A stretch of 64,000 nucleotides of DNA, taken from positions 414,831-478,830 of the forward strand of contig JAOAGL010000001.1 of NCBI GenBank assembly GCA_026415775.1, given 5' to 3'. Position numbers and translations under genes: made by a program. Every line of letters begins with the position of its first letter. Position 1 is the stretch's first letter. A model generated the notes under the pieces. That model saw nothing but the letters and a program-made list of their open reading frames with translations. It had not been told where the DNA came from and did no database searches. Source of the DNA: Patescibacteria group bacterium (GTDB lineage Bacteria > Patescibacteriota > Minisyncoccia > UBA6257 > JAAZHW01). Positions 12,410-50,260 of this stretch are shown here, in pieces.

Positions 12410-13429
12410 ATGGGTAATAAACTCCAAAAACAAATATCAAATTACCTCATTCCACAAGTGGATAATGAATTTCAACCTCATTCTTTAAGAACAAAGTCGG
12501 TGTTTTGGATTTTTATTGCCATTCTACTTTTAGAAAATTTCTTCTTTTTATTAGCTTATTATTTAATTCCTTCTTCTGATTTTCTCGCCTCGCTTATTTC
12601 TACCAGCATTGTTCAATATACCAATCAATATCGCCTAACTTCAAATGCACCCCAGTTAGTTATTAATCCTTTGCTTAACGAAGCAGCACGTCTTAAAGCC
12701 GAAGATATGGCCCAACGAGGATATTTTAGCCATAATAGTCCGGATAATATTACGCCTTGGGAATGGTTAAAAAAAGTTGGATATGATTACCTTTATGCCG
12801 GCGAGAATTTAGCTCTTAATTTTACCGATTCCCAAGAAGTAGTTGAGGCTTGGCTTAATTCAGAATCACATCGTCAAAATTTATTAAATCCTAATTTTAA
12901 AGAGATTGGCATAGGCATTGCAAAAGGCACTTATAAAAATCAACCAGCAATTTTCATTGTTCAATTTTTTGGCACACCAAAATTATTAGCACAACAAACA
13001 CCAGCAACTCCATCTAATTCTAATAATTTAGTTTCATCTCCCACCCCAGCAATAAAAATTCAACCCTCACCAAAATTAACCCCTTCACCAATTGTTACTC
13101 CAACACCAGAACAAAAATTTATTACAACAACCCCTCAAGTTTTGGCTATTTCCCCCATCGCAACAACATCTGCGATGCCTAGTATTAACCCCACATCCTT
13201 CTGGGCATTAATCCTTCAAAAAGTAGTTGCCAATCCAAAAAGTTCTCTTAATTCCTTATTGGAATTCTTCGCTATCTTTATTATCATTGCTCTTTGTCTA
13301 AAAATATTTATTAAAATTGATATTCAATATCCGACACTCATTATTAATGGTGTCTTAATCTTAATCGTTATTATTTTCGCCTGTTGGTTAAATAATTATA
13401 TCTTTAATCTCTGGCCGCAAATAATTTAA
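12410..13429 (+). CDS. CAP/SCP/PR-1 (YkwD-like) domain protein with N- and C-terminal TM segments and a PT-rich region
   Basis: CAP motifs: HR(Q)NLLNPNFKEIGIGIA, GYFSHNSPD, YAGENLA. The ORF-finder start at 12374 is TTG inside the promoter, so the ATG at 12410 is preferred. Confidence 0.65.
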   Translation: MGNKLQKQISNYLIPQVDNEFQPHSLRTKSVFWIFIAILLLENFFFLLAYYLIPSSDFLASLISTSIVQYTNQYRLTSNAPQLVINPLLNEAARLKAEDMAQRGYFSHNSPDNITPWEWLKKVGYDYLYAGENLALNFTDSQEVVEAWLNSESHRQNLLNPNFKEIGIGIAKGTYKNQPAIFIVQFFGTPKLLAQQTPATPSNSNNLVSSPTPAIKIQPSPKLTPSPIVTPTPEQKFITTTPQVLAISPIATTSAMPSINPTSFWALILQKVVANPKSSLNSLLEFFAIFIIIALCLKIFIKIDIQYPTLIINGVLILIVIIFACWLNNYIFNLWPQII

Positions 13430-16411: not shown

Positions 16412-17185
16412 TTAGTTAATATTTTTACAAAATTTAATTTGAGAAGTAATAAACAAAAAACCAACGATTAAAAGAATTGAATTGATTAATTCCCAAATAT
16501 AACTTATAGAATAACCAGCTACCGGCAAAAACCAAAATGCTGGTGGCACGCTTAACATTACAGAATAATTAAAATAATTTAAAAGCGCTCCTAATAAATT
16601 ATTTACAATTAATATTATCGGGCCTATTTTTTGTATTTTTAATAAGTTTGTTTGTTTGTCGAATAAAAGACGCAGGGCAACTAATAAAATAAAAATTCTT
16701 GCTGGAAAAATGAAAATATAATACAATGTCTTCACTGGTATATAATCAGAAAATAATCCTTTGTAGGCAACAAAATAATAAAACATCACAATAAAAGCAA
16801 CTACTGCCCAAGCATGCAAAAAAATAAACACACGTTTTTGACAGAGTTCGGAACATAAAGTTCTTAATACCAAAATAATAAGTATTAAAGCAATAAGATA
16901 TAATGGTAAAGCAACAGCAAAAACCCAATATATTCGTTCCACAACAAATGTGAATCCCAGCAAATTAAGAGCGAAAGGCAATCGTGTCCAATAAACAAAA
17001 AACAAAACTAAAGATATGTATAAAAAAATCCTTTGTTGTTTTTGACTTTTAAGATATTTTATAAAAAAATAAACAGAAAAAGTTAAATCTAAAACAAAAG
17101 CAAGCAAAGAAAAAACAGCTAAAATTGGTTTTGCTTGTAATCCTAATAGCTGAATATTTTTTATAGCAGAAAATATTTTATACAT
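16412..17185 (-). CDS. Polytopic membrane protein, hypothetical
   Basis: Six to eight hydrophobic segments. No recognisable family. Confidence 0.45.
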   Translation of the reverse strand: MYKIFSAIKNIQLLGLQAKPILAVFSLLAFVLDLTFSVYFFIKYLKSQKQQRIFLYISLVLFFVYWTRLPFALNLLGFTFVVERIYWVFAVALPLYLIALILIILVLRTLCSELCQKRVFIFLHAWAVVAFIVMFYYFVAYKGLFSDYIPVKTLYYIFIFPARIFILLVALRLLFDKQTNLLKIQKIGPIILIVNNLLGALLNYFNYSVMLSVPPAFWFLPVAGYSISYIWELINSILLIVGFLFITSQIKFCKNIN

Positions 17186-17202: not shown

Positions 17203-17347
17203 AATTAAAAATAAAAAATAGACCTAGGAGGTCGCTATTTGCTTAGGCCGGTTACGCCACTAGCTCCACATGGCCCAGGCGTCCATATTACAGGCCATGT
17301 TTCATCGCCTCCTTATTTAATTATATATTTTTCTAAACAAATTTCAA
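17203..17347 (-). promoter_or_regulatory. Promoter (TTGAAA-N16-TATAAT) plus a structured ~110-nt leader with a GC hairpin and a terminator/anti-terminator pair; candidate riboswitch or attenuator
   Basis: -35 at 17342-17347 and -10 at 17320-17325 on the minus strand. The leader has a catggcc-N17-ggccatg hairpin (17269-17299). A terminator gacctcctaggtc with a T-run (17203-17233) sits 17 nt before the ATG, and the 5' AGGAGG can alternatively pair with its CCUCCU. Confidence 0.4.
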
Positions 17348-17371: not shown

Positions 17372-19939
17372 CTACTTCTGATGATTTAAATCCAATTGAT
17401 GTTTTTTATAGTATTTTAATTTAACACCCTCGCTAATAATAAAGTATATTGTAACCAACAAAATTACAATGATTACAAATTGAATGGGAACTTTTTGAAA
17501 ATGTAAGATATCAATTCCAAAACTTGTAAAAGGTAAGAAAATAGTAACCAATGTAGCTATCAATCCTAAAAAGATTAATGGATATGATGGCTTGATTGTC
17601 TGATAAAATTTTTGCGTTGTTCGAACAGCAAAGATTAATACCAATTCCGTTAAAATGCTTTCAATAAACCATAAAGTTTGAAGGTTTTTTTCTCCCATAC
17701 GATAAAAAATAGCAAAAAAAATGAAATCAAAAATGGTGCTCACAATAGCCAATCTAATAATTAAAGGTAGCGTTTTTTGCATTTGATAGCTTTTGGGTCT
17801 TTTTAATTCCTTTGTTTCTACATTATCAGTAGCAATAGCAATCATTGGAAAATCGGATAATAAATTAACTACTAAAATTTGAACGGGAAGCATCGGCAAA
17901 AAAGGAATAAATAAAGAAATAAGGGCAATGGAATAAAAATTGCCGAAATTAGAAGCTAATGTTGTTTTGATGTATTTATCTAAATTATTAAAAATTTTCC
18001 GACCATAAGAAATTCCCTCAATAATTACATTAAGATCGTTTTCCAAAAGAATAATATCAGCTATTTCACGAGAAATATCAGCAGCAGTGTTAACGGCAAT
18101 AGCCACATTGGCAAGTTTTAAAGCAGGCGCATCATTAATTCCCTCCCCCAAAAATCCAACTTCATACTTTTTCTGAAGCGATTCAATAATCTTATATTTC
18201 ATTTCTGGCGAAATACGAGCAAAAACATCAATCTCTTCGCAAGTTTTATCAAATTCTTCCGGAGATAATTGTTCCAATTCTTTACCAGTTCTAACCTCAT
18301 TCTTATTAGAGATTAATCCAATTTGATATCCTATATATCCAGCCACCTCTCGACTATCGCCAGTAATCAGCTTAACTCTAACTCCTAATTTTTCTGCTTT
18401 AGTAATTGTTTCTTTAGCTGTCTTTTTTAACGGATCAGCAAAAATTAATAGTCCAAGTAGATTAAAATTATCCTCTGCTTCATTTATGTTTTTAAAAAAT
18501 TCCCCTTCTTTTATTTCCCGATAGGCAACCGCCAAAACACGCCTTCCCTCTTCACCAGCCTCCTTAATCTTTCTTTCAAAAATTGTAAAATCAAATTTAC
18601 CTTCTACAATTTTAGCGGCCTCTATTTTTACTGTTTTTTCAAAAATCTTTTCTGGAGCACCTTTTGCAATAAGAAATCGTCTGCCATCACTACTCTCAAC
18701 CACAATACTGTTAATCAATCTTTTTAAATCAAAGGGGTTTTCGGCAATTAACTTAAATTCTTTCAATTGCGAAGTAAAATTGCTTGCGTGTTTTTCAACA
18801 ATGGCTTTATCAAAAGCATTTTCAATATTTTTTTGTTTTTTTAATAACTCTGTAGAAAGCAATGAAAAAAGAATTGTTTTTTCTATATTATTAGCAAAAA
18901 TTTCATCTAGAGTCATTTTGTTCTCCGTTAATGTCCCTGTTTTATCAGAACATAAAATTTTAATATTGCCTAAATCTTCAATGGCATTCAATCTTTTGAC
19001 TACTACCTTTCGTTTTGCTAATTTTAATGCTCCCTGAGACAACGAAAAAACTACCACCGTCGGTAATGCTTCGGGGAGAATGCTAACAATTAAAGCAATA
19101 CAAAAAATGAGATAATCAAATATATTTTCACAGTTAATAAAAAGACGCAAGATAAAAACAGCTGTAATAAAAAAAACGACCATTTTAATGATTAATCTTG
19201 AAAATCCTAATAATTCTTTTTCATAGAAACTTTTTTTACCAATCTCTTCCACAAGCTTAGAAATTTTTCCTACTGCTGATTCTCTAATATTATTTATAAC
19301 AACCCCCTTTGCTTCCCCATTTATTATTGAAGTACCAGAGAATATAATATTTTTTGCCTCAAAAATTTCTTTTGTAGCAGAAGTCAGTGGTTTTTCGTCT
19401 TTTTCAACAGCTTTGGATTCACCTGTTAAAATACTTTCATCAATAATTAAATTTTTAGCTTCAATAATTCTTAAATCAGCCGGCGCAATATCGCCAGCAG
19501 ATAAAACCACAATATCACCAGGCACCAAATATTTTTTATTAACAATCACCCTTTCCCCCTCTCTAATTACTTTAACATCATTAGGCAAAAAACTTTTTAA
19601 AACTTCTATTACTTTCTCAGCGCGATATTCTTGAACAAAACCCAAAACGACATTAATCACAACAAAAAGAAAAATAAATAAAGAATCTATTATTTCGCCA
19701 ATAATTAACGAGATAGCGCCAGCAATGAATAAAAGATAAGTGAATGGCGATTTAAATTGAGAAAATAAAATATGAAACCATCTTCTTTTTTTGAAAGGAA
19801 GCTCATTAAAACCAAATTTTAATAAACGTTCGGTTACTTGTTTTTCTGTTAATCCATTAACCGAGCTCTCCAATAATCTCAAGGATTCTTCTATATTTTT
19901 ATCGGTAAAATCAACAAAATTTAAATTTTTTTTCTCCAT
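17372..19939 (-). CDS. P-type cation-transporting ATPase (MgtA/P2-like)
   Basis: ILCSDKTGTLTENKM, GEGINDAPALKLANVAIAV, PEALP in M4. Confidence 0.8.
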   Translation of the reverse strand: MEKKNLNFVDFTDKNIEESLRLLESSVNGLTEKQVTERLLKFGFNELPFKKRRWFHILFSQFKSPFTYLLFIAGAISLIIGEIIDSLFIFLFVVINVVLGFVQEYRAEKVIEVLKSFLPNDVKVIREGERVIVNKKYLVPGDIVVLSAGDIAPADLRIIEAKNLIIDESILTGESKAVEKDEKPLTSATKEIFEAKNIIFSGTSIINGEAKGVVINNIRESAVGKISKLVEEIGKKSFYEKELLGFSRLIIKMVVFFITAVFILRLFINCENIFDYLIFCIALIVSILPEALPTVVVFSLSQGALKLAKRKVVVKRLNAIEDLGNIKILCSDKTGTLTENKMTLDEIFANNIEKTILFSLLSTELLKKQKNIENAFDKAIVEKHASNFTSQLKEFKLIAENPFDLKRLINSIVVESSDGRRFLIAKGAPEKIFEKTVKIEAAKIVEGKFDFTIFERKIKEAGEEGRRVLAVAYREIKEGEFFKNINEAEDNFNLLGLLIFADPLKKTAKETITKAEKLGVRVKLITGDSREVAGYIGYQIGLISNKNEVRTGKELEQLSPEEFDKTCEEIDVFARISPEMKYKIIESLQKKYEVGFLGEGINDAPALKLANVAIAVNTAADISREIADIILLENDLNVIIEGISYGRKIFNNLDKYIKTTLASNFGNFYSIALISLFIPFLPMLPVQILVVNLLSDFPMIAIATDNVETKELKRPKSYQMQKTLPLIIRLAIVSTIFDFIFFAIFYRMGEKNLQTLWFIESILTELVLIFAVRTTQKFYQTIKPSYPLIFLGLIATLVTIFLPFTSFGIDILHFQKVPIQFVIIVILLVTIYFIISEGVKLKYYKKHQLDLNHQK

Positions 19940-38430: not shown

Positions 38431-40494
38431 TTATTCCTCTTTAATTTCAATATCTTTAACCTCTTTCCCAATTTTCTGTTTAACCCATTCCAAATCCTTT
38501 AAAAGTTTTAATTCTAATCCCTCTTCTTCTTCTTTTATTTCACCTTTAAGTTTAAGGCTTTCGATAAATTCTAGTTGTTTTTCAATATCGCGTTTCAACA
38601 GTAAAAATCCATAACGAACTGCCTCTTCAGCTTCTTTAATTTCTTTCATTACTAGGCGATGTTTCTTTCTCCCCTGATAAAAATGATAGGAGGTATAAAT
38701 CAAAGCAATAATCAAAATAATAAACAAAACAAGAGAAACCACAAAATAAATTGCCTCATAACTTAACTGCGAAACTCCAAATTGAAAAGCAACGGGTTTC
38801 ACGGTTAACTTAAACTGCGGCGACGGCGGACTTAATTCATTATTAACTCTCATCTGTGTCCAAATTAAATAATTACCGCTAATCAAAAACTTCGGATGCG
38901 AATAAAACCAATCGCCTTTGTTGTCAGATAAAGCAGCAAGAGAAGTGACCTCTCCAGTTTCTAAATTCTGAAGATAAATAATTACTTCGGCATTTGCCAC
39001 TTGAGTTTTCCCACCAATATAAAATATTTCTCTGTTTGTAATATTCTCTGAAAATTCTAAAACAATCGGCGGTGATAACTTAGCAGTTTGAGCTTTAATA
39101 GTTGAAAGAGTCAACAAACAAGATAATCCCACAATCAAAATAATAACTGCGATTTTCCCATATTCTTTTCTTTTATTTTTTAATTCTTCGATGCGTTGTT
39201 TAATAACCGGATCTTTTTCAATGCCGCCTAACAAAATTTTATTCTTTTGATAATGCCATTTTCTGGCTTTGTAAGCGAAAAAACCAATTAAAGCAATTAG
39301 ACAGATAAGTATTAACCATAGGCCAATCCATGGGATAGAAATAATTTCGCTGATTTTTAAGCCTTCCCCTTGAACAAATTGAAATATAGGTGTCACGATT
39401 TTAACTCGTTTTTTACTCTCAATAAAATTTCCGGCTCTATCGTAAGCCCTAACATATAAATCATAATCGCCTAAATCTAACTGAAGGATGTGCGGCAAAT
39501 CTGCTTCTGTAAATAAAATTTGGGGTGTTTCTTGCTGAGCCTGAACTGATTTGTTTAATTTCAACGGAATGACTTTAATTTCATAATGGTCTATACCTGA
39601 AGTAGTGTCCGTAGTTAAAAATTCCAAAATAATTGTTTTTTGACTAGTATGCGTTGAAGGAGAAACTTTTATTGGAAATTGAGCTGGCGGACTTGTGTCA
39701 ATTTTAACCGCATAATGACTTACACCACCCCAAAAACCACTTCTTTTAGCTTTTAAATGAAAATACCAGACACCATCAGCAAGATTATTATAATTTACAT
39801 AGTTTTCTTTTTCATCAAGAATATCGTCTGGAATAGTTAAAGGATTATTATCTAAAACATAACTGTATCCTTCAATCCCTTTTCCCTCTTCAACCAGCCA
39901 TTGAAAATTAACATTATCATTGTTGTACCATTTTGTGGAGTCTGGATGCGTTGAAGAAATAATCTCTGGGCCGGCAGGAGGAGGAAGTACTAATTCATAA
40001 ACGCCACCCTTTGTTTGTCCTAAAACATCTGTTCCTTTTCCATCAGCTAAAAGAACTTTTGATTTTGCAGTATCGAATCTGAGTGACGCTGTGCCAATTT
40101 CTTTAGCGCGGAAAGTAACTGTCAGCAACAAACATGAATCAGTGTTAATGCCCGGCGCGCTAATCCCTCCAGATAATTCTAACCATCCTTCAGAATTAGA
40201 ATATGTTGGTTGTTTCAACCAAATTTCCAAACATGATTTTCCTGTTGAAGGAGAAACAATTTGTAATTTTTCTGATGGAAATAAAATTTTTGTTTGAACG
40301 GCATTAATAAAATTGCCATTAGTATTAACATAAAAAGAAACTGTAAAAGTATTACCAATAGGAATTGTTCCTGAATTCGGAGAAACATATAAAACAGCCT
40401 CTTTAATTTCTGCCTTCAAAGGGTATATTAAAGGGGCGACAACGAACAAAACAATGATTAAATTAACAATTAGAAAATTCGGGAATTTTTTCAT
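38431..40494 (-). CDS. Large multi-TM surface protein with an N-terminal cohesin-like domain
   Basis: Signal/TM at the N-terminus. Residues ~30-150 (AVLYVSPNSGTIPIGNTFTVSFYVNT...ILFPSEKLQIV...LLADGKGT) resemble cohesin modules. It has three internal TM helices and a charged coiled-coil C-terminus. Confidence 0.4.
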   Translation of the reverse strand: MKKFPNFLIVNLIIVLFVVAPLIYPLKAEIKEAVLYVSPNSGTIPIGNTFTVSFYVNTNGNFINAVQTKILFPSEKLQIVSPSTGKSCLEIWLKQPTYSNSEGWLELSGGISAPGINTDSCLLLTVTFRAKEIGTASLRFDTAKSKVLLADGKGTDVLGQTKGGVYELVLPPPAGPEIISSTHPDSTKWYNNDNVNFQWLVEEGKGIEGYSYVLDNNPLTIPDDILDEKENYVNYNNLADGVWYFHLKAKRSGFWGGVSHYAVKIDTSPPAQFPIKVSPSTHTSQKTIILEFLTTDTTSGIDHYEIKVIPLKLNKSVQAQQETPQILFTEADLPHILQLDLGDYDLYVRAYDRAGNFIESKKRVKIVTPIFQFVQGEGLKISEIISIPWIGLWLILICLIALIGFFAYKARKWHYQKNKILLGGIEKDPVIKQRIEELKNKRKEYGKIAVIILIVGLSCLLTLSTIKAQTAKLSPPIVLEFSENITNREIFYIGGKTQVANAEVIIYLQNLETGEVTSLAALSDNKGDWFYSHPKFLISGNYLIWTQMRVNNELSPPSPQFKLTVKPVAFQFGVSQLSYEAIYFVVSLVLFIILIIALIYTSYHFYQGRKKHRLVMKEIKEAEEAVRYGFLLLKRDIEKQLEFIESLKLKGEIKEEEEGLELKLLKDLEWVKQKIGKEVKDIEIKEE

Positions 40495-40504
40495 TTTATT
40501 TCCA

Positions 40505-41392
40505 CTACCTTCTTTTATTATAAAATAATTTTACTAATAAACCAATTACTAAAATTGCTATAATAATTAAAATCAATTTTTCAAATAAAACTCTATAAAA
40601 ATAAACTGTTCGTTGATTACTATTACCAAAATTATCCACAGCCAAAAATTGAATAGCCCAAATATTTTTAGAAAAACCAAAGGGATTAGTTATTTCATAC
40701 CAATCACTCCATTGAAACCATTTTTTTACTCTAGCAAAATCTTTAACCATTCCAGAGTTATCTTTTGTTTCAAAAATTAAAAACTTCTCTTTGCTGTTGA
40801 AAGGATTATCAGCTATTCTAAACAATAAAATTTCTGGCTGAATTTTATCTTCCTTAACTATCACTGGTCCTTGTTTAACAACCAAACCAGAATTTTCTTG
40901 ATTATCACCTTCTATCTTGATTTGTGAAATATACAAAGGGATATTTTTAATTTCTATTTCATCAGCCATTGTCCCTTTGCCATCAGCCAAATAAGCAGCT
41001 GCTTTTTTAAAAACAAAATTTTCTTGTCCAGCTTTTAGCGCTTCAAAAATTAACGCAATAATTTGTCCATTTTCACCAACAAATGGTTGAATGGAGCCTC
41101 CTTGTAAAATAATTTCATTTTGATTATTCACTTCGATTTTTTTCCAAATATTTATAATGGAATTATCTTTATCAAATTGCTTAAATTTTATTAATTCGGA
41201 AGGATATTGAACAATTAAATCATATGCATTAAGCGGTTTATCAGAATCAACGCGAACATAAACAATAAATTCCAAAGATTTATTATCGGGTTGAATTCCA
41301 TCAAAATAAAAAACTGTTTTAGCGTCCACGCGCAAACTCAAGAAAAAAGAACAACAAATAAAGATTAAAAATAATATTCTGGTTTTTTTCAT
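40505..41392 (-). CDS. Secreted/anchored protein with a cohesin-like domain (paralogous to the N-terminus of 38431-40494)
   Basis: LNAYDLIVQYPSELIKF... and AAAYLADGKGT share the LADGKGT motif with its neighbour. Signal peptide and C-terminal TM (LILIIIAILVIGLLVKLF). Confidence 0.4.
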   Translation of the reverse strand: MKKTRILFLIFICCSFFLSLRVDAKTVFYFDGIQPDNKSLEFIVYVRVDSDKPLNAYDLIVQYPSELIKFKQFDKDNSIINIWKKIEVNNQNEIILQGGSIQPFVGENGQIIALIFEALKAGQENFVFKKAAAYLADGKGTMADEIEIKNIPLYISQIKIEGDNQENSGLVVKQGPVIVKEDKIQPEILLFRIADNPFNSKEKFLIFETKDNSGMVKDFARVKKWFQWSDWYEITNPFGFSKNIWAIQFLAVDNFGNSNQRTVYFYRVLFEKLILIIIAILVIGLLVKLFYNKRR

Positions 41393-41393
41393 A

Positions 41394-41912
41394 TTAGCCA
41401 GTCCAATAATAAAGAATTATTGATAAATCGACAATATCTAAAACACCATCGTCATTTAAATCTTGCCAATAAAAATCTTCATTTGGATTCCCCCAGTAAT
41501 AAAGAAATATTGAAAGGTCGACAATATCAACTCTTCTATCTTTATTAAAATCTGGCGATTTTTTTCTTAAATAAATATCAGGTGGTAAAGTAGGACCAAA
41601 AGGTGGCGAAGGTAAAATAGGAGAAACAATAAAACCGCCACCGGGATGAGGCGTTAGCGTCGGTGTTGGAGTAAAGGTTATAGTTGGTGTCGGGGTTGGA
41701 GTCGGAGTGGGGGTTAAAGTTGGTGTGGGCGTTGGTGTTTCGGTTGGTGTTGGTGTAGGAGTAGGAGTGGTTGTGGGAGTTGGTGTTTCTCCGGGAATAA
41801 CTACTTCAATTATTAAATTTTGACTAGCAGAAAAAATCTCTTTTGTCAAAAAAAAAGAAAAGAACAAAAAAACAATAACAAAACAAAAAAACCACTTGCG
41901 ATAATCCAACAT
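41394..41912 (-). CDS. Secreted protein: signal peptide, Pro-Thr linker, C-terminal dockerin-like duplicated Ca-binding repeats
   Basis: Two tandem segments [20 protein letters not shown] and [20 protein letters not shown] fit the dockerin pattern D-x-N-x-D-G-x-x-D-x-x-D-hydrophobic helix. Confidence 0.5.
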
Positions 41913-41946
41913 ATTGGTGTTTTAAATGGATACTACTCTTTTCTTC

Positions 41947-42879
41947 TTATTCTTGATTTTCTTTTGGTTTTTCTTCTACCTTAACAATCTTGAATTTTTT
42001 CTTAAAAAGTTTAATTCCCCAGACAATCAAAAGAATAATTACAACAATAAGAATCGCCTCTTGGTAGGGAAATGCCCAAATTACTATCTTAGCCGGTTCA
42101 ATAGCCGGGCCGTTAGGAATATAAGTATTAATAACGACATTTAAAGGGCCAAAGAAGTATTTGCGGTCCCATTTAACAGCAAAAGTGCGGTCAAAACCCG
42201 GAAAAACAACGCGTGAATCAATTGCTAATTCTTGTTTTTGGAAAAGACCAGAAATAACCACCTTGCCTTCGGGCGCAATATAGGTATTGCCTTCGTTTAA
42301 AATTTTAAAAGCAGTTGTTAACGGCCCATGATCAATAAATTTAGGCGCTTGAATGCTGCTGATTTTAGCTTGTTTTACCACATCGCCAGTGACTTCCACC
42401 AAAATTACTGTGCCAGTTCGTCCCGAAATACCAATACCACTCGCCTCTTCTGCTGGTTTGCCTTTAAACAAAACAGCGGCGTAATGTCCGCCGGGCGGCG
42501 CATTCTCCGGAATTTTAATTTTATAATGAAACTCTCGACTCTGTTTTGGTTGAAGCTCAAATTCTTCAACATCATAACTAATCCACTTTGCCAAACCATA
42601 TTGATTAAGATCTTCGGAAGTTAAAGAAATACTTCCCTCAGCGCCACCCCTAATATTTTCCTTTTCCACAATTACCTTTAAAACAAAATCATTCGGATTA
42701 ACAATTGTTGTCATTCCCTCCCATTCTTGTCCCGGACTTAAAACAATTTTATAAGAAAGCGGGTAAACGGTGATTCCGATATCCGCTTTCGCTTGATTAA
42801 TAAGAAAAAGAAAAATTATTAAACAAAAAGCAAACAAAAATCCGTGAATTAAATTTTTTGTTGTTTTAGTTAACAACAT
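41947..42879 (-). CDS. Surface protein with N-terminal signal and C-terminal TM anchor (CscA/DUF916-like architecture)
   Basis: MLLTK...FCLIIFLFLINQAKA signal, C-terminal ILIVVIILLIVWGIKLF anchor. It lies immediately upstream of the WxL-like genes. The family assignment is inferred from architecture only. Confidence 0.35.
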   Translation of the reverse strand: MLLTKTTKNLIHGFLFAFCLIIFLFLINQAKADIGITVYPLSYKIVLSPGQEWEGMTTIVNPNDFVLKVIVEKENIRGGAEGSISLTSEDLNQYGLAKWISYDVEEFELQPKQSREFHYKIKIPENAPPGGHYAAVLFKGKPAEEASGIGISGRTGTVILVEVTGDVVKQAKISSIQAPKFIDHGPLTTAFKILNEGNTYIAPEGKVVISGLFQKQELAIDSRVVFPGFDRTFAVKWDRKYFFGPLNVVINTYIPNGPAIEPAKIVIWAFPYQEAILIVVIILLIVWGIKLFKKKFKIVKVEEKPKENQE

Positions 42880-42912
42880 ATTTTTTCTTTCTGCTATAAA
42901 AATCTGCTCTAA

Positions 42913-43524
42913 TTAAATCGCCAATGCTGTTAAGGTAATAGTACCGCTATAAACGCCGCTGGGTTGAGATATTGGTGCATCAATTCTAAACCCATAAACC
43001 ACTGTTTGCTCGCTTGATTGATAAGTACTAATTGTAGCTATTTCTTGAGAACTAGCTGGAAAACCAGCCCATTTTGGCGAAGAATCATTTGTGCCCCAAT
43101 AAGTAGAATTATATAAACCAGCTGGTGTCGTACCGGTTTGATAAACACGGAAGGATAAATTGGAACCGGGGGTATCTGTTGAATTGCTTCCATTCCAAGC
43201 TGTTTCATCGGGAAAATCAACTGTTTGATTGCTATCCAAATCTAAAGTAGAATTAGCATCATCTCTTTTTGCTGACAATTGCCAACCACTATTTGAGTTA
43301 GTCGTTACACTGCAAGAAGTAGTAGCGATAATTGGTGTCCCAGGAGTAAGAACTCCTAATGCTACAGTATTGGTGGCCAAGCTAAAAGTTAAAGTGGTCG
43401 TGACTGTCACTTGAATTGTCTGACTTTGATCACTGGCTTGAGCAATTTTGTAAAATTGATTAACTAAAGCCGAGCTTAAAACCACAAGACCGACCAAAAT
43501 AAAAATTTTTACATCGTTTTTCAT
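42913..43524 (-). CDS. Small secreted protein with a WxL-like C-terminal domain (homologous to the C-terminus of the giant protein)
   Basis: Signal peptide, GWQLSAK motif, and C-terminal FRIDAPISQPSGVYSGTITLTALAI. These align with YRADAPISQPIGVYTGDITITALGNL of ORF 43737-48338. Confidence 0.4.
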   Translation of the reverse strand: MKNDVKIFILVGLVVLSSALVNQFYKIAQASDQSQTIQVTVTTTLTFSLATNTVALGVLTPGTPIIATTSCSVTTNSNSGWQLSAKRDDANSTLDLDSNQTVDFPDETAWNGSNSTDTPGSNLSFRVYQTGTTPAGLYNSTYWGTNDSSPKWAGFPASSQEIATISTYQSSEQTVVYGFRIDAPISQPSGVYSGTITLTALAI

Positions 43525-43620
43525 TTTTTATTTTATTAATTAAAAATCGACCTTATTTTGATTCTTTAATCTTATTATAAAATTTTTTAATTCAATCAAC
43601 AAGTGAATTATCCACAACAA

Positions 43621-43736
43621 GTCTAGAAGCTAGAAAATAGAATCTAGAAGCTAGAATCTTGATTTTTAAGAACCTCTCCTTTCTTTCTTCTATTTTCTAT
43701 TTTCTATTTTCTAGATTCTATTTTCTAGCTTCTAAC
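43621..43736. repeat. Complex palindromic/tandem repeat: 26-bp perfect inverted repeat (43624-43649 vs 43709-43734) with internal direct repeats (tctagaagctagaa x2; ttctatt x3)
   Basis: Read directly from the sequence. It is unusually rich in CTAG. It sits 3 nt downstream of the stop of the giant gene and upstream of ORF 42913-43524. Confidence 0.7.
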
Positions 43737-46700
43737 TTACAAATTCCCCAACGCTGTAATCGTAATATCGCCGGTATAAACGCCGATAGGTTGAGAGATG
43801 GGCGCATCGGCTCGGTATAAAATCATATTAGTTGTCGTACCGTTTTGACAAGACGGACTAGAGCAGGTCATTATTGTTTGAGATGTTTCTGGCATACCGG
43901 CAAATTTTGCCGTGCCTTCATTATCATTTAATCCCCACCAAGTGGAATTATAGTTTGAATCGGTGCCGCTACTCATTAAACGGAAAGAAAAAGTTGAGCC
44001 AGGCGTGGTCGTGGCATTACCGTTGCCGCCGTTAGCTGTTGGGTCCCAAACCGGCGTATAATCGGGAAAGGTAATTGATGGATTACTTTGAAGCGCTAAA
44101 GTAGAAGTGCTACTTGCGCGTTTGATTGCTAAATAATAACCGTTGTCGTAACCGCTTACAACGACCGTTGCCGTTGTTGTTGCCGAAACCGGAATTTGAG
44201 GCGCTAAAATACCAAGATTAATATAATTACTTGAAAGATTAAGAGTTAAACTTTGTTGTAATGGAGCCGTAGTAATTTCAGGATAGACATTATAAAAAAT
44301 TGTTTCGTAATCGGGATTGCTAATATTGGCTTTTACCACTTGGAAACAATAAGGAGTTAACGGAGACGCTCCGTTGTCCTGTAAAGAGAAATCCCACATT
44401 CCATCTTCTCCAATATTAACCATTGAAATAGCATTAATAAAATTGTTTGATTCAACATAAGTTTGACGTTTAATCGTATGGCCATTATGTGTCGGGTCAT
44501 TATCATTAGCTATTAAAGCATCTCCGTCATTAACATTACTGTTATCATAAAAAGCAATGGTTGAAGTTGAAGTAACATCAGTGAAAGTTTCATCGTCTCC
44601 ACAAACTGAACCGCTTTTAGGAGCGTATTGCAATTTTAGATATTTCCCATTTTGTAATAATTCATTGGTATCAATATGGAGCAGTAATCTTAAGCGGAAT
44701 GGCTGATTGGTAACGTTTAAACTGGCCGGCGTATTAGTGTTTGCTAATGGATTGCCCACATTAGCAGAGTTTTGATTTTCAAAAAAGCGATAAGCTGATT
44801 GGGTGATTTTAACACCGCCTGTTTCATAATAACTTTGACGAATCAATTGTTCAATCCCATCCCAAGAACTAGTGACTATACCCCATTGCCAAAAAGTTAA
44901 AGAAACCGTCTGATTGGGAGCAACGTTATTCCATACAGAATCAAAGAAAATATTATCAGTTTCACCACTGGCATCGCTCTGTTGATCATCTACTCTCCAT
45001 TCGGAAGTATAATTAACCCATTCCGCCCACGGAGAAGAGTTGGTTATGGCAGCGGAGGTTAAGAAATATCCGTAACGAGGGGGATTATTTTCATTAAAAA
45101 TTACACCCATAGCTGCATAAACACCAACATCATAAGTAGTAAACCAATTTTCCGGCAGAGTAGAAGTACTCATTAAAATATGCGTCTCGGGAATAACATT
45201 AGAAGTATAACCGGCATAACGACCTCTATCGTTTACATTTCTATCTGTACCCAACCACTGTTCTCTTCCCCATACCATCGGGTAAATATGAGAAGTGCTA
45301 TCATTATTTTTAAATTCATAGGTATTTTTTAAATATGGTTTATTAGCATAAAATTCTTGAGTTCGCGTAGCGGAAATATAATTATTTAATTGTTGTGCCC
45401 ACCCAGTTGATGCTGTATCATCGGAAACAACTCGCCAAACAATTTTTGTATTATCTTCACTAACAATCCAATTAGTACATTGATTGGGTTTCCATTTAAT
45501 ATCAGCAGAATAATAGTTAGAAGTATCTGCTCTTATAGTATTATCAACATGCACCGCTACTCTTTCCATACAATCTAAATTAACATCATCATTGTTAACA
45601 AAATTACGCCCAGTTAACTCTATTTGTTCACCTTCTCCCTCATGTCCACAACCAAAAATAACAGTATTAATGTAATTATTACCAAAAAGTATACCATTCG
45701 AAAAAAGCCTTTCACCCATATTATATGTTTGCACTCTATCAACGCGCGTCATAAATAAATCAGTATCGGATCTAAAATTTAAATTAACTGTGTAATAGGT
45801 ATTAGCAGCAACTGAAGCCTTTTGAATATACAATGTGTGTTTATTATTATCCCACCACCAACAATCTGTTGTTGAAGCGGGCGATCCTTGAGGGATAGAA
45901 GAACTGTTTATAGTTACAGAAATATTGCTAATATTTGCTGTTATTGGATGAAAAGGAATAGCAAATGCGACATTTGTTCTCGCGCTTGCACTACCGCCAA
46001 TAGAAAAATCTTCGATTGAATAGTCCCAATAACTGCCGCTTGAATTCCAAGTAGGATTAAATTCTGTGCCGTAACCCATCTGAGTGGTACTAATTGCATT
46101 CCAACGACGCACAACATAAGTTGAAAAACTTCCGGCTGAAGCTGAATAATCAATAGAACTAAAATTGGAATCGTTATCTAATTGAACTGTAACATTATAG
46201 GTTCCGGTATTGGGATCAGCGCAACCATTACAATACCACGAACCAACATAAATAATACCTTCAAATTGACTAGTTGAAGAATTCCAAGTTAATTGAGTAT
46301 AATAAGTTTCTGAAGCTGGTGTATCAACTTTTGCACGGGCATGGGGATAATTATTTGGTGACAAAGATCCATGAAGTTGCAAATAAACAGGAATAGCCCC
46401 ATACCAACTATCAGAAGTTTTACCTAATGATCCGGTAATATAATCGGTAATAGCACTCATGGTAATTTGAGGAATAACTGAATAAGTATTAAGTAAACTA
46501 CCATCGTTTTTAACAATTCGAAAACAATAAGTAGTTGAAGTGGGGGTAGAATTATTATCAAAAAGAGCAAAATCCCATTTGCCGTCTTGGCCTGCAGAGA
46601 TTGCAGCGACTGAGTTGGTAAAAGGATTAAGCTCTTCGTAAGTTTGGTTAACAATAGTATCAGAACCATGTGTCGGATCATTGGTATTGGCAGTTAAATT

Positions 46701-48338
46701 CGCACCATCAGAAGGAGTAGAATTATTATAAAAAGCAATAACCGTACTAGTTGTAACATCACTATAGGTTTCGCCGGAAAAAGAAGTATCGCATACTCCA
46801 TCAGTACCACGCTGGGCAAATTGGAGTTTGAAACTGCCTTCGTTCGTAAATAAATCAGAAACGCCGACATGCAAAAGCATACGCAATCTAAATGCCGCGC
46901 CGGTTAAGCCAAGCGTTGCCGCCGTATCCTGCGCGGCAAGCGCGGTTCCCACATCGGTTGAATCAGTATTATTGAAAAACCGATACGCGGCCTGTGTATA
47001 GGTCTTTGGCGCGATGGGTCGGCCGAAAAGGTCATCGGGCGTAGCGGCATACCAGGTGGCGTAGATGCGTTGAGTTGACGCAGACATCAAGCTTAACCTG
47101 CCGCCGTAGATATCGTCGTTTGAAGAATACACCGGACCAAATTCAGAACTCCAGGTAGAACCGCCGTCTGTAGAATATTTCCAGTAGAGGTTGCCGGTTG
47201 AAGCGGTGCCGGGGGTTGATCGGGCGGAATAGAGAACGTATAGATAGCCCGTGTTCTGGTCCCTTGCGATTTTTGCTCCGGTGATACCGCAGTTTGAGAC
47301 GCCCGCGCAGACGCTGTCGGTGACGACATCGGTCAGAGCGGTCCAGCTCGTTCCAGAAAACTTGCGGACTCTGATATCGTCATCGGTTCCCAATGTGGCC
47401 GCGCTTGCCGCGTATGCCAGATACACATCGCCATTTGAAGTGTCAACCGCTGCGCCGAAGGATGCGTCGTAGGTGGTATTATCAAGCGCGGTGTCAATAT
47501 TCGCAAATGCAGACCAAGTTCCGGTGTATCGTGAGTATTTAAGGTCGTTCGTTGTTGCCGAAATATCCCACCAAATAAACATCATCTCGCCCGAGAGCCG
47601 CGGGATCAGAAGCATAAAGTCGTCTCCATTTGTCCACGAAGCCGGTTCGGAAACCGCCCAGTTAGTAGCGGTGGTGCAGGTTGTGGTACAGCGAACCATC
47701 ATATTGTCGGTTGTGTCGGCAACCGCGGCATAGAGCGCGCCGTCAGTTGCTTTGGAAATGGCGACGTGGTTTGTGCCGGCAGTTAAAGTACCTGTATAAC
47801 CGAGACCGCTTGTAATGTTGACCGGGCCGGTTGAGAGTGTATCGGTTGAAGTGTCAAGAGTTCTGTACCAGATATCATCGTTTGTTACATCGGTGGTTGC
47901 GATATGAATTAAATTGCCGGTTGTGTCGCCCGGAGTCCAGCGGTCATACCATACAGCGATTTGGATGATGTCGGTCTTTGCATCAACCGTAACCGGCGCG
48001 CCCCAGGTTGCGCCGCCATCCGTAGTTTTACTGTAGACGGCAGTGCCCGCGGAATCTACGTAAAACGCATAGCCGGTTGTCTGGGAAGTAAACACAGTGG
48101 TTGGCGAGCCGCCGAGGTGTTCCGCGGGGGCGGTACTCACCGTCGAGTCAATCGTTACCTGCGCCGCGAGTGCTTTTTGAATTTCCGGCGGAATTCGCGG
48201 ATTTTGCCAAATGGTTGGCCAGCCGGAAAAAATCCAAAGAAAAATTACTAAAAATACTAACAAGTTTCTAACAAAACTTTTTACAAATTTTTTTGTTTTA
48301 ATATTCGCTATCCTCATAAATTCAACTTTTTTCATCAT
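43737..48338 (-). CDS. Giant (1533 aa) surface protein: N-terminal TM, BNR/Asp-box repeat (sialidase-like propeller) domain, two ~185-aa internal repeats, WxL-like C-terminal domain
   Basis: BNR motifs SKTTDGGATWGAP, YSTDGGSTWSSEF. There is an internal duplication starting AYRFFNN...FRLRMLLH... / AYRFFENQ...FRLRLLLH... The C-terminus is homologous to ORF 42913-43524. Confidence 0.6.
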   Translation of the reverse strand: MMKKVEFMRIANIKTKKFVKSFVRNLLVFLVIFLWIFSGWPTIWQNPRIPPEIQKALAAQVTIDSTVSTAPAEHLGGSPTTVFTSQTTGYAFYVDSAGTAVYSKTTDGGATWGAPVTVDAKTDIIQIAVWYDRWTPGDTTGNLIHIATTDVTNDDIWYRTLDTSTDTLSTGPVNITSGLGYTGTLTAGTNHVAISKATDGALYAAVADTTDNMMVRCTTTCTTATNWAVSEPASWTNGDDFMLLIPRLSGEMMFIWWDISATTNDLKYSRYTGTWSAFANIDTALDNTTYDASFGAAVDTSNGDVYLAYAASAATLGTDDDIRVRKFSGTSWTALTDVVTDSVCAGVSNCGITGAKIARDQNTGYLYVLYSARSTPGTASTGNLYWKYSTDGGSTWSSEFGPVYSSNDDIYGGRLSLMSASTQRIYATWYAATPDDLFGRPIAPKTYTQAAYRFFNNTDSTDVGTALAAQDTAATLGLTGAAFRLRMLLHVGVSDLFTNEGSFKLQFAQRGTDGVCDTSFSGETYSDVTTSTVIAFYNNSTPSDGANLTANTNDPTHGSDTIVNQTYEELNPFTNSVAAISAGQDGKWDFALFDNNSTPTSTTYCFRIVKNDGSLLNTYSVIPQITMSAITDYITGSLGKTSDSWYGAIPVYLQLHGSLSPNNYPHARAKVDTPASETYYTQLTWNSSTSQFEGIIYVGSWYCNGCADPNTGTYNVTVQLDNDSNFSSIDYSASAGSFSTYVVRRWNAISTTQMGYGTEFNPTWNSSGSYWDYSIEDFSIGGSASARTNVAFAIPFHPITANISNISVTINSSSIPQGSPASTTDCWWWDNNKHTLYIQKASVAANTYYTVNLNFRSDTDLFMTRVDRVQTYNMGERLFSNGILFGNNYINTVIFGCGHEGEGEQIELTGRNFVNNDDVNLDCMERVAVHVDNTIRADTSNYYSADIKWKPNQCTNWIVSEDNTKIVWRVVSDDTASTGWAQQLNNYISATRTQEFYANKPYLKNTYEFKNNDSTSHIYPMVWGREQWLGTDRNVNDRGRYAGYTSNVIPETHILMSTSTLPENWFTTYDVGVYAAMGVIFNENNPPRYGYFLTSAAITNSSPWAEWVNYTSEWRVDDQQSDASGETDNIFFDSVWNNVAPNQTVSLTFWQWGIVTSSWDGIEQLIRQSYYETGGVKITQSAYRFFENQNSANVGNPLANTNTPASLNVTNQPFRLRLLLHIDTNELLQNGKYLKLQYAPKSGSVCGDDETFTDVTSTSTIAFYDNSNVNDGDALIANDNDPTHNGHTIKRQTYVESNNFINAISMVNIGEDGMWDFSLQDNGASPLTPYCFQVVKANISNPDYETIFYNVYPEITTAPLQQSLTLNLSSNYINLGILAPQIPVSATTTATVVVSGYDNGYYLAIKRASSTSTLALQSNPSITFPDYTPVWDPTANGGNGNATTTPGSTFSFRLMSSGTDSNYNSTWWGLNDNEGTAKFAGMPETSQTIMTCSSPSCQNGTTTNMILYRADAPISQPIGVYTGDITITALGNL

Positions 48339-48490
48339 TAATAAAATTGCACTAATTACTTTTAATATTTCTTCTCTTTTTTTAAAATTTATTTGTTTCT
48401 TTATTAATTGCTATGGTACTTTTTAAAATTCCAGTTTTGAACGTGCGTAAGATTGTTTTAAAAATTCCATCATCCAAAATTGATTCAAAA

Positions 48491-50260
48491 TCAAAAATTA
48501 ACAACATTAATCTGACACATCGTTACTAAATTATCCGTTTGATAAATAATCGGGATACTAAAATTGCCTTTCTGAGAATTAGGCAAAGCAATTATTTTTA
48601 ATACTAATTCTTTATCATCTTTGTCTGGAGTAATAACATAGTCGATATTTTTAGCAAAAAATATTTCAAGACCCTGAGGTAAATTGCCGATAGTTATCTT
48701 TTGAAACAACGCATTTGGGTTTTTGTTCAAACGCACATTAACTTCTTTTACATCACCTTCTTTAATTTGGATATTAAATGGTTCTACCGAACAAGAAAAC
48801 GATGAATTGCTTTCGATATTTAAATTTTTAATCTCTGTTAATTCCTTTGTTTTCATTTTTAAACTATCCAGTATTTGTTGAACTTCAAAAGGAAATTGGA
48901 TTGGTGTGGGCGTCGGCGTTATTGTTATTGGTTCGGTAATTTCGGGTGTTTCTTCTATTGCTTCATATTCAATTTCCAACTGCGCGCCATCCAAAAAAGC
49001 AATTAAATTATCCTCTAAATTGGTGTTTAAAGTTGATTCGATACTGATTTGTAAATTATTGATTTCTAACCAGTTGGTAAGCGTTAATTCAAATTCTGTT
49101 TGATAATTTTCTTTATTATCAATGATTGTCAAAACTTGCCAATTTTCGCCATCCAAAGTGTATTTAATGATAAACAAAGGCGCTAAAGTCGGCGTTGGCA
49201 AAGTAGTGGATGTTATTTCTGCTGAAGGAGTAATTTCTAAAGCGGGGCTTTCGCTTGTTTCAGGAGTAGAAGTTTCGATTGTCGCCATGGGTGTTTCGAC
49301 TGGCGTGAAAGAATCTTCTGTTTCAAGAGGCATTTCGATTGGAGAAGCTGATGGTTCTGAAGAAGGTGTTGGCTCTAAAGTGGAAGCGGGAGTGGAAATG
49401 TAAGTTGGTTCTGGTGTTGGGGTATTTTTTAAAGTGGGCACAGCAGTTGGGTTGTTTTCTAGCGACGATTCGGTTGGAGATGCTTCTTGAGCCAAAACTT
49501 TTTTCAAAAATATTTTTAACAAAGAAAGTGGCGTTGGCGTTGGTCCTTCGGATTGAGTCGGTGTAGGTGTTGATGTTGGTTGTTCTAATGGAGTTGGTGT
49601 TTGTTTTAAAATTGGAGTTTGTTCAGTTGTTGGTGTTAATTCAATTTCTGGGCTTGATTCGATAGTTTCAGTTGAGGTGGAATTGGTAGATTCAATATTT
49701 GTTTCTGTGGGTGAAAACATAAGTGTATTTTCTTCACTCGGGGAAGGAATTTCTTCCGGTGGAACAATTATCATTGTTGGTGTTGGTTCAATTAAGTTTA
49801 AATCATTAAGTTCTTGTTGTGTTATTAACCATTCATTTTTATTTCCGATTCTAAAATTAAGTTTTAATGTTGCGCCGGTAATTTGTTTGTCGTCGGTTTC
49901 AATAAGGGATGGATTTTGAAAACCGCCAAAAAAAATCTGTTTTATTCCTCCGCCATCAAAAATAGCTGAATTATTTTCATTAAAATATTTTAGCTCAGCA
50001 TCAAAATCTAAATCCGGTTGATCAATGGCTTTATCAACATTATTCCAATTTCCCAAAGCTGAACTAGGGTAAAAATAAATAATATCAGCTTTTAAAACAG
50101 CGCTATAAAAAAGCCAGCCAGTAATAATTAAAACAATAAAAATCATTAACCAATTAATAATTTGGCTTCTCTTTCTTAAATCCAAAATTTCTGTTTCTTT
50201 AGCTTTTTGAATATCGGTAAAATAAGCTAATGTTTTCTTTTTTGCCTTAGCCCTCATCAA
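48491..50260 (-). CDS. Membrane-anchored protein with long Pro/Thr/Ser/Glu-rich low-complexity region, hypothetical
   Basis: N-terminal TM (IINWLMIFIVLIITGWLFY) and a PT/ST-rich middle section. Confidence 0.45.
   Translation of the reverse strand: MMRAKAKKKTLAYFTDIQKAKETEILDLRKRSQIINWLMIFIVLIITGWLFYSAVLKADIIYFYPSSALGNWNNVDKAIDQPDLDFDAELKYFNENNSAIFDGGGIKQIFFGGFQNPSLIETDDKQITGATLKLNFRIGNKNEWLITQQELNDLNLIEPTPTMIIVPPEEIPSPSEENTLMFSPTETNIESTNSTSTETIESSPEIELTPTTEQTPILKQTPTPLEQPTSTPTPTQSEGPTPTPLSLLKIFLKKVLAQEASPTESSLENNPTAVPTLKNTPTPEPTYISTPASTLEPTPSSEPSASPIEMPLETEDSFTPVETPMATIETSTPETSESPALEITPSAEITSTTLPTPTLAPLFIIKYTLDGENWQVLTIIDNKENYQTEFELTLTNWLEINNLQISIESTLNTNLEDNLIAFLDGAQLEIEYEAIEETPEITEPITITPTPTPIQFPFEVQQILDSLKMKTKELTEIKNLNIESNSSFSCSVEPFNIQIKEGDVKEVNVRLNKNPNALFQKITIGNLPQGLEIFFAKNIDYVITPDKDDKELVLKIIALPNSQKGNFSIPIIYQTDNLVTMCQINVVNF

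Follow-up and report, generated by a model that had tools for sequence, protein, structure and literature searches.

Patescibacteria of the candidate phyla radiation (CPR) are believed to spend their lives on the surface of host cells, but few of the structures by which they attach have been identified. The Pam pilus was identified only in 2026, by cryo-electron microscopy and in one cultured species, Candidatus Mycosynbacter amalyticus, for which filaments of PamA and PamB were solved (Troman et al., bioRxiv 2026, doi 10.64898/2026.03.03.709456). In the model proposed in that preprint, PamC and PamD are membrane-anchored chaperones, PamT is a tip subunit without a donor strand and PamR is a terminator or anchor that donates its N-terminal strand, while the N-terminal sandwich domain stabilises the PamA and PamB filaments; Pam pilins are stated to be exclusive to CPR, and cohesin, dockerin, WxL and DUF916 are not mentioned (doi 10.64898/2026.03.03.709456). 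Here we describe a six-gene block at positions 38431-48338 of a 64,000-nucleotide stretch of a Patescibacteria group bacterium (contig JAOAGL010000001.1; this whole stretch is called the window below), which is a genuine operon for the assembly of a surface structure and is conserved in related loci; most likely this structure is a pilus of the Pam kind that differs in its minimal pilin, its giant tip protein and a proposed coupling through cohesin and dockerin. A single literature search on cohesin or dockerin in CPR gave no report of such a coupling. The original prediction, made from the sequence alone, had considered the whole system as not described, which stands for the cohesin-dockerin coupling, missing from the preprint, but not for the core, since Pam pili are its subject. 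Apart from this point and from the WxL assignment discussed below, the original prediction proved largely correct.

The six open reading frames (ORFs), which we call G1 to G6, were all confirmed at their coordinates, and the gaps between neighbours from G2 through G6 measure 1-34 bp:

43737-48338, minus strand: G1, ORF of 1533 amino acids (aa), proposed tip adhesin
42913-43524, minus strand: G2, 203 aa, signal peptide, N-terminal strand and one pilin domain, proposed minimal shaft pilin
41947-42879, minus strand: G3, 310 aa, two beta-sandwich domains behind a signal peptide, then a C-terminal transmembrane (TM) helix at 272-295
41394-41912, minus strand: G4, 172 aa, signal peptide, short hydrophobic strand, Pro/Thr linker and dockerin, proposed secreted adaptor
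40505-41392, minus strand: G5, 295 aa, signal peptide, cohesin-like domain, second beta domain and C-terminal TM helix
38431-40494, minus strand: G6, 687 aa, signal peptide, cohesin-like domain, immunoglobulin (Ig)-like region, three TM segments (aa 381-410, 445-468 and 576-606) and charged C-terminal tail

Every product of this co-directional block carries a hydrophobic N-terminal signal segment and the TM segments were confirmed as well, so that the prediction of six products that are all secreted or anchored was borne out. The nearest relatives carry the labels Minisyncoccia or Parcubacteria, in agreement with the CPR origin that had been proposed; unlike for Pam, the lineage is Parcubacteria/Minisyncoccia-like and not Saccharimonadia or Microgenomatia. 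Two locus tags, N2692_02465 and N2692_02470, are found in the public record of the same metagenome-assembled genome.

A domain of 171 aa is shared by the C-terminus of G1 and by G2 (45% identity, E=2e-36), with the internal motif GWQL/GYYL and the terminal motif GVYxGxIT(L/I)TAL that had both been recognised earlier. In G2, this domain aligns with positions 3-146 of the 148 positions of the NCBIfam model CPR_Pam_pilin_C (20.6 bits, E=3.6e-4, cut-off 55), which derives from the 2026 preprint (the Pam models of NCBIfam are NF058581/NF058579). The same model was matched by 13 of 31 close relatives and by 23 of 59 wider family representatives (best 1e-8), while nine of these 59 matched the PamT model (best 1.7e-12). 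Structure comparison showed that the predicted fold of G2 resembles donor-strand pilins, with TasA and the TasA-like TLP-2 among its best fold matches; searches of the PDB by sequence, with G2 or with its family profile, gave nothing useful. We counted 589 cluster representatives with a G2-type domain and, among the 150 representatives listed, all full-length domain matches were C-terminal, either alone (~200 aa) or behind passengers in proteins of up to 3773 aa. The shared domain thus weakly matches the donor-strand pilin domain of Pam, which it would be according to sequence and predicted structure, and it resembles Pam in its CPR context and in the truncated Ig-like, chaperone-usher-pilin-like fold of a C-terminal pilin domain. 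Two features of these proteins matter for what follows:

43740..44255, minus strand: C-terminal pilin-type domain of G1, similar to the Pam C-terminal domain (identity to G2; A2 hidden Markov model (HMM) E=7e-63)
43393..43425, minus strand: candidate donor strand SQTIQVTVTTT of G2, aa 34-44 (family conservation)

The candidate donor strand is strongly conserved in the family and has no secondary structure in the monomer model, in which the first strand is formed by residues 45-49. Its position equals that of the linker strand DDQVxVSATVP of the two-domain pilins that are encoded in related loci, where the linker reads ...DDQVxVSATVPPSITF... in loci that contain a dockerin gene.

The shared domain had originally been taken as WxL-like, a reading that did not hold. 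Pfam WxL (PF13731) was matched neither by G1 and G2 nor by 31 relatives at E<=0.1, and it was absent among the 25 of 36 Pfam families listed for 59 further relatives. When the G2-type domain was compared with 11 annotated WxL proteins from Firmicute plasmids, using two profiles and global hhalign, probabilities of 1.7-4.9% were obtained, near the 0.7-1.6% of unrelated controls, and the alignable parts were confined to the GW.L.VK motif and the C-terminal strand (Y..T.T.T...P). A single WxL tripeptide occurs in G2, and none at the C-terminus. Membership of the WxL family was therefore rejected as unproven (Pfam on 90 relatives, profile hhalign and global hhalign), the domain matching CPR_Pam_pilin_C and PamT instead.

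The protein encoded next to the pilin, G3, looks like its chaperone. Its AlphaFold2 model (pLDDT, the model's own confidence score, 90.4) shows two beta-sandwich domains followed by the C-terminal TM helix, a helix that is kept in 92 of 94 full-length family members, and Foldseek placed the WxLIP structures 9i1y/9i25 on top (E~1e-10), followed by FimC, CfaA, Caf1M, CsuC, DraB and SafB, which are chaperones of classical, alternative and archaic pili. G3 itself scored 18.1 bits against PF06030 (WxLIP_PGBD/DUF916; cut-off 27.3), a family that was matched by 31 of 40 G3 family members, and the G3 family profile matched the solved EfmWxLIP1 of E. faecium (E=1.6e-4), which confirms that the presumed anchor protein is a DUF916/WxLIP relative; this relation amounts to superfamily-level homology. 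No match to DUF3324 was found in G3, which does have another Ig-like domain as well as the TM helix, and no NCBIfam model recognises the G3 chaperone. The G3 family also reaches into Pam loci: in the locus L055 of our genome scan, a 367-aa pilin passes the Pam-pilin cut-off (58.3 bits vs 55) beside three chaperones that match the G3-family HMM (3e-68 to 7e-55), and each bona fide Pam-type locus holds one chaperone above the DUF916 cut-off (43.6, 39.1 and 38.8 bits vs 27.3). Furthermore, tblastn and the G3-family HMM link these chaperones to DUF916 proteins of Deinococcus, Streptomyces, Clavibacter and Melissococcus. By sequence and model, G3 is thus a predicted pilus-type chaperone of the same sequence family as the chaperones of Pam loci; as in Pam, it is PapD/FimC-like, is anchored by a C-terminal helix and comes with no usher, but it is the only chaperone here, compared to two in Pam.

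These DUF916 links also decide what remains of the earlier description of G1, G2 and G3 as a Csc-like set: the anchor protein and the layout bear it out, whereas for the WxL domain it is unproven. As in WxL/Csc clusters (Siezen 2006, PMC1534035; Hassan et al. 2023, PMC10599100), the set joins a small protein that consists of the domain only to a large one that carries this domain at its C-terminus and to a two-Ig DUF916-type TM protein, the anchor proteins are homologous, and the two local motifs given above are common to both. In contrast to these clusters, the locus has no significant WxL sequence or profile match, holds a single WxL tripeptide, lies in another phylum and gives no DUF3324 match; an [LIV]PxTG-like motif was absent from G1 to G6 and from the upstream gene G0 described below, so that a CscD-type LPXTG partner is missing from the set. 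WxL proteins have moreover been described as peptidoglycan-bound monomers, whereas a fibre is proposed here. A bridge locus with a G3-like chaperone and Pfam-WxL neighbours was sought through the protein P0046, which proved to belong to another locus of the dockerin-cohesin type. As a separate observation, a 219-aa WxL-domain gene (L083:5303-5962, plasmid pMEPL_178 of Melissococcus plutonius) lies between an LPXTG gene and a DUF916/DUF3324 gene; it is absent from the gene table of pMEPL_178 and annotated in the sister plasmid NZ_AP018525.1.

G1 is built from a hydrophobic signal or anchor segment (aa 18-44), a long passenger rich in Thr, Ser, Ala and Asn, and the C-terminal pilin-type domain. 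Three regions were distinguished in the passenger:

47019..48161, minus strand: possible BNR/sialidase-like propeller region (weak), aa ~60-440 (Pfam BNR_2)
46542..46997, minus strand: repeat copy 1, aa 448-599, domain family not recognised, 47% identity to copy 2
44361..44804, minus strand: repeat copy 2, aa 1179-1326 (self-comparison)

The label of a BNR-repeat giant, given originally, had to be downgraded to a weak one, as two Asp-boxes are indeed present (TTDGGATW at aa 105 and STDGGSTW at aa 389), but the BNR_2 match (E=7e-4, 19.4 bits) stays under its cut-off of 31.4. The two copies of the ~150-aa internal repeat (E=2e-47), which had been overlooked until now, belong to a domain that recurs in L004, within the large pilin, and in L006, within the dockerin protein. 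A PDB search with the G1 sequence gave nothing useful. The residues immediately upstream of the C-terminal domain of G1 are the end of repeat 2 (YNVYPEITTAPLQQS) and not a donor-type strand; when large and small members were inspected, G1 and its nearest large relatives alike showed the end of the preceding repeat (YNVYPEITT...) before the acceptor domain and no donor-type strand. The proposed tip would thus be a 1533-aa adhesin, unlike the small PamT, and giant variable adhesins mounted on a pilus are therefore suggested candidates for host specificity. Apart from this, the G+C content reaches 0.46 at 46001-48000, in the 5' third of G1, vs 0.30-0.37 over the rest of the window, which could reflect the Thr/Ala/Gly-rich composition of the protein or a foreign origin.

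We mapped the following elements in the products of the last three genes of the block:

41397..41552, minus strand: dockerin module of G4, aa 121-172, two Ca-loop/helix repeats (Pfam Dockerin_1)
41793..41825, minus strand: isolated hydrophobic strand of G4, aa 30-40, proposed donor strand (family pattern)
40919-41329, minus strand: cohesin-like domain of G5, aa 22-158
40012-40413, minus strand: cohesin-like domain of G6, aa 28-161

G4 had been described as a signal peptide, a Pro/Thr linker and two dockerin-type repeats, all of which we found again together with the short strand. The two tandem loop-helix segments start at aa 121 and 151, 30 residues apart, behind a linker of ~60 aa. The match of G4 to Dockerin_1 (PF00404; E=0.0033, 18.0 bits) is under the cut-off of 22.9, but 20 of 21 G4 orthologues match this family (best E=1.5e-9), and the dockerin call could be upheld. 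Neither G4 nor its 20 orthologues have a TM segment beyond the signal peptide. The N-terminal domains of G5 and G6 were found to be alike over ~145 aa, compared to ~120 aa in the original prediction (23% identity, E=3e-7), and both contain the motif LADGKGT. PF00963 is matched by 17 of 38 G5/G6 homologues at E<=0.01 (best 9.6e-8). An earlier profile of the G5 family (nine sequences) returned nothing useful from the PDB, and with a profile of 37 N-domains most matches, 11 of the 15 best, were cellulosomal cohesins, including those of ScaB and SdbA (best E=0.0028). NCBI names G5 a cohesin domain-containing protein, and almost all cohesin proteins of related loci are TM-anchored. Judged by sequence, these N-domains are probably cohesin-like, a call that holds at the level of the family and is marginal for the window's own proteins.

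We then compared the block with related loci (numbered with an L). The genome scan gave 116 loci with a G3-type chaperone, of which 80 were kept for HMM analysis; they are spread across Patescibacteria and also occur in Chloroflexota (including Dehalococcoidia). The comparison across Patescibacteria that had been suggested earlier showed that the order pilin(s), chaperone (1-2), dockerin protein, cohesin membrane protein(s) is fixed in ~21 loci, which come from many Patescibacteria, and recurs in L081/L082. The number of cohesin proteins per dockerin-containing locus is usually two (range 1-3), and the cohesin gene follows the dockerin gene in every locus whose contig continues, while the dockerin protein is encoded once per locus and has no catalytic domain. 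Among the loci sampled, those with three chaperone/PamR-like paralogues had neither dockerin nor cohesin, whereas no more than two chaperone-family paralogues were counted wherever dockerin and cohesin occur; the window operon has a single chaperone-family gene and no second paralogue.

Like G4, almost every one of the 21 dockerin proteins has an isolated hydrophobic strand right after the signal peptide and then a Pro-rich stretch, that of L006 being ambiguous; other examples of such strands are QQVIITATVPTSPP, DTLTVTVTATVPSDAPP and IDVSVSATVPSDPP. A shuffle test of each locus had low power because of the Thr/Val/Pro-rich composition (for the N-terminus of G4 against the pilin, p=0.97, as the Pro/Thr linker dominates), and it was replaced by a positional count and by a pairing-permutation test. 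The N-terminus of the dockerin protein has its best 11-mer match exactly on the donor strand or linker of the pilin in 8 of 17 loci. Within loci, dockerin-strand/pilin-strand pairs scored 18.5 vs 12.8 +/- 1.5 for shuffled pairings (p~1.5e-4), with registers that were set by hand and loci that are related to each other. The G4-G2 pair of the window scored 12, the same as shuffled pairings and not significant alone. In L067, the dockerin protein starts as a pilin N-domain and linker strand, and where the acceptor domain would stand it continues with Ig spacers and a dockerin.

Putting these observations together, we favour, with moderate confidence, the view that this is a locus for a donor-strand pilus of the CPR Pam type, assembled with a chaperone but no usher, cut down and with a different anchor. 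The pilus part of this scheme appears quite likely. Sec would export all parts; G3, fixed in the membrane through its C-terminal helix, would hold the incomplete Ig-like domain of fresh subunits; G1, which has an acceptor domain and no donor-type strand, would therefore start the fibre and stay at its tip, where it may display its 1360-aa passenger as a host- or surface-binding adhesin; and copies of G2 would join, the N-terminal strand of each entering the groove of the previous subunit, as suggested by fold, conservation and the cryo-electron microscopy structures of PamA and PamB. The anchor part is close to an even call. G4, which has a donor-like strand and no acceptor domain, would therefore end the chain, its long Pro/Thr linker leading to the dockerin, and this dockerin may bind the cohesin modules of G5 and/or G6 and so fix the fibre to the cell, a pairing to which strict gene adjacency and complementary topology (soluble against TM-anchored) point. 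As in Pam, the proposed tip subunit has no donor strand and the proposed terminator gives an N-terminal strand, but an RbmA-like PamR is missing, and a soluble dockerin adaptor with two cohesin-bearing membrane proteins stands in its place. G4 and G5/G6 would then perform in two pieces the role proposed for PamR in Mycosynbacter.

Several points weigh against this scheme, among them the hand-set registers and related loci of the pairing test and the two results for the window's own strand reported above. Fold assignments, family links and synteny come directly from the analysis, whereas donor-strand exchange, polymerisation and cohesin-dockerin binding are all steps that we infer. The window proteins are under every curated cut-off (Pam_pilin_C, PF06030 and Dockerin_1), which includes those of NCBI and distinguishes them from Pam, and G5 and G6 themselves gave no match to Pfam Cohesin PF00963. 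G2, with its signal peptide, strand and single domain, is a 'minimal' pilin without the nine-strand N-terminal sandwich domain of Pam, although two-domain pilins do occur in related dockerin-containing loci. Lastly, the crystal structure 9i25 shows a WxLIP stably bound to a long WxL protein, and therefore a homologue of the chaperone can also be a permanent holder.

This last point leads to a different explanation, in which the locus would encode a static complex of the Csc/WxL type: the membrane-anchored G3 would permanently hold a single G1 and G2 via its own strand, and the adhesin would be displayed directly at the surface with no polymerisation. Besides 9i25, the place of G3 in the WxLIP/DUF916 superfamily, the one-small/one-large/one-anchor layout, which is the commonest one of WxL clusters (PMC10599100), and the missing inter-subunit N-domain of PamA and PamB in G2 are all in line with such a complex. 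The domain of G2, however, is nearest to polymerising pilins and Pam models and not to WxL, and filaments have been seen by cryo-electron microscopy for pilins with the domain that G2 weakly matches. G2 also retains a conserved free N-terminal strand that the monomer model leaves unused, and a static complex gives no role to the donor-like strand of the dockerin protein. We consider a static complex unlikely.

Cohesin-dockerin pairs serve as general surface-assembly modules outside cellulosomes, and, in keeping with this general knowledge, the last three genes could form a separate neighbouring scaffold that recruits dockerin-bearing proteins and is functionally unrelated to the pilin and the chaperone. 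Many chaperone loci without cohesin-dockerin genes would fit this idea. In the ~21 loci, however, these genes hold a fixed position right after the chaperone, with gaps of only 1-34 bp in the window; the single dockerin protein per locus has no catalytic domain; and its strand tracks the donor strand of the pilin, the one of L067 even carrying a pilin N-domain. A separate scaffold is thus quite improbable. That generic beta-sandwiches or mis-called ORFs resemble such a system by chance and share no operon function is extremely improbable, since, although the matches of the window's own proteins are all below curated thresholds, it is contradicted by the strong internal similarities (G1/G2, G5/G6), by hundreds of homologues with conserved architecture and synteny, and by high-confidence models with consistent fold neighbours.

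The proposed pilus may also be set beside three better known kinds of assembly. With chaperone-usher pili (type 1/P, CFA/I, and the archaic Csu/CupE), it shares the pilin and chaperone folds and, for the roles proposed here, a tip adhesin with a receptor-binding part and a pilin domain, a strand-donating shaft pilin and a terminator. It differs from them in having neither an outer membrane nor an outer-membrane usher (no usher-like gene was found among the ORFs of the operon or with Pfam), in its membrane-tethered chaperone, in a sequence identity of ~10-15% and in a proposed terminator that lacks any pilin domain. Like TasA/TapA-type and archaeal donor-strand fibres, the fibre proposed here is usher-less and belongs to monoderm cells, but there is no sequence relation, and we know of no dedicated two-domain chaperone of the G3 family in those systems. 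A duplicated Ca-binding dockerin with a distant cohesin-like domain recalls the anchoring of cellulosomes by scaffoldins such as SdbA and ScaB, where the pair likewise would tie an extracellular assembly to the cell. Here, in contrast, the cohesins sit on TM-anchored proteins, not on SLH- or sortase-anchored ones, and the partner to which the dockerin is fused is a pilin-type strand. As the operon encodes no enzymes or carbohydrate-binding modules, we rejected the idea of a cellulosome-like system or of one for carbohydrate utilisation.

If the coupling is real, it would represent a new way of anchoring a pilus and a new job for cohesin and dockerin. The locus suggests that many genomes swapped the membrane anchor for this coupling, that a stripped-down Pam system reaches Parcubacteria-like lineages and that, through its chaperone, this system is linked to the WxL/Csc clusters of lactobacilli, enterococci and Listeria, which have long been a puzzle. 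In its widest form, the proposal is that a cap made of a bare donor strand and a dockerin anchors the pilus through membrane cohesins and, at the same time, that one ancient system of single-membrane bacteria, which combines a chaperone with strand complementation and has no usher, branched into the Pam pili of CPR bacteria, the DUF916 loci of Chloroflexota and Actinomycetota, and the WxL/Csc clusters of Firmicutes. We put this double claim forward tentatively, as somewhat short of an even call. If there was one such shared system, the 'cell-wall binding' domains of WxL proteins may really be strand-acceptor domains. As a simple pair of small domains, the cohesin-dockerin pair could also become a modular handle for surface display in single-membrane bacteria.

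Several observations were made on the way in other genomes. A Clavibacter phaseoli plasmid (pCCh) encodes a DUF916 protein (L084:5101-6915, G3-family HMM E=2e-31) that adjoins a 208-aa hypothetical protein with a post-signal strand DVDVTVGIAP, a GWYVLG motif and the C-terminal sequence AGDYSSTITLSLFE, the pair sitting by GH43 hydrolases; with this pair and the chaperone loci of Chloroflexota and Dehalococcoidia, the system may well extend beyond CPR. Three Microgenomates-type loci without dockerin and cohesin, which encode a PamT-like protein, a chaperone, a 470-aa pilin and a chaperone, have in common a divergently oriented gene of ~294-347 aa (L007:10980-11864, L017:11563-12555 and L037:11085-12128, all minus strand in locus coordinates) between a chaperone and a ~2500-2800-aa protein; its product ends in ...KKLHHSWF(M/V/L)GY and might serve as a further anchor or in assembly. 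The G5 orthologue of a Minisyncoccia relative (P0088, L002:1748-3037) is annotated as a single 429-aa protein, and its N-terminal ~130 aa match two families, the Avd-like four-helix bundle and the '23S rRNA intervening sequence protein' (PF22296, PF05635). Either two genes were fused or a stop was missed, and the extension hints at an accessory gene of a diversity-generating retroelement beside the surface operon.

In the window itself, a further co-directional gene that had escaped notice lies immediately upstream of G1:

48491-50260, minus strand: G0, 589 aa, Pro/Thr-rich surface protein with N-terminal signal anchor

With G0, seven co-directional minus-strand ORFs occupy 38431-50260, and a terminator-like hairpin at 50347-50320 separates the G0 block from rplK/nusG. 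G0 has a TM segment at 32-58 and, among the 80 loci scanned, a homologue at the equivalent position in L004 only, and its membership in the surface system is uncertain. A scan for sigma-70 promoters gave 54 sites vs 43 +/- 7 expected and was uninformative. Further away in the window, we identified a full-length c-di-GMP-II (cyclic di-GMP) riboswitch aptamer at 17237-17321 on the minus strand (Rfam RF01786, 71.8 bits vs a gathering score of 53.5). Genes for P-type ATPases flank it on both sides (13426-16164 and 17372-19939), and the gene directly downstream of it encodes a multi-pass membrane protein of 257 aa (16412-17185); such an element is unusual in a reduced CPR genome.

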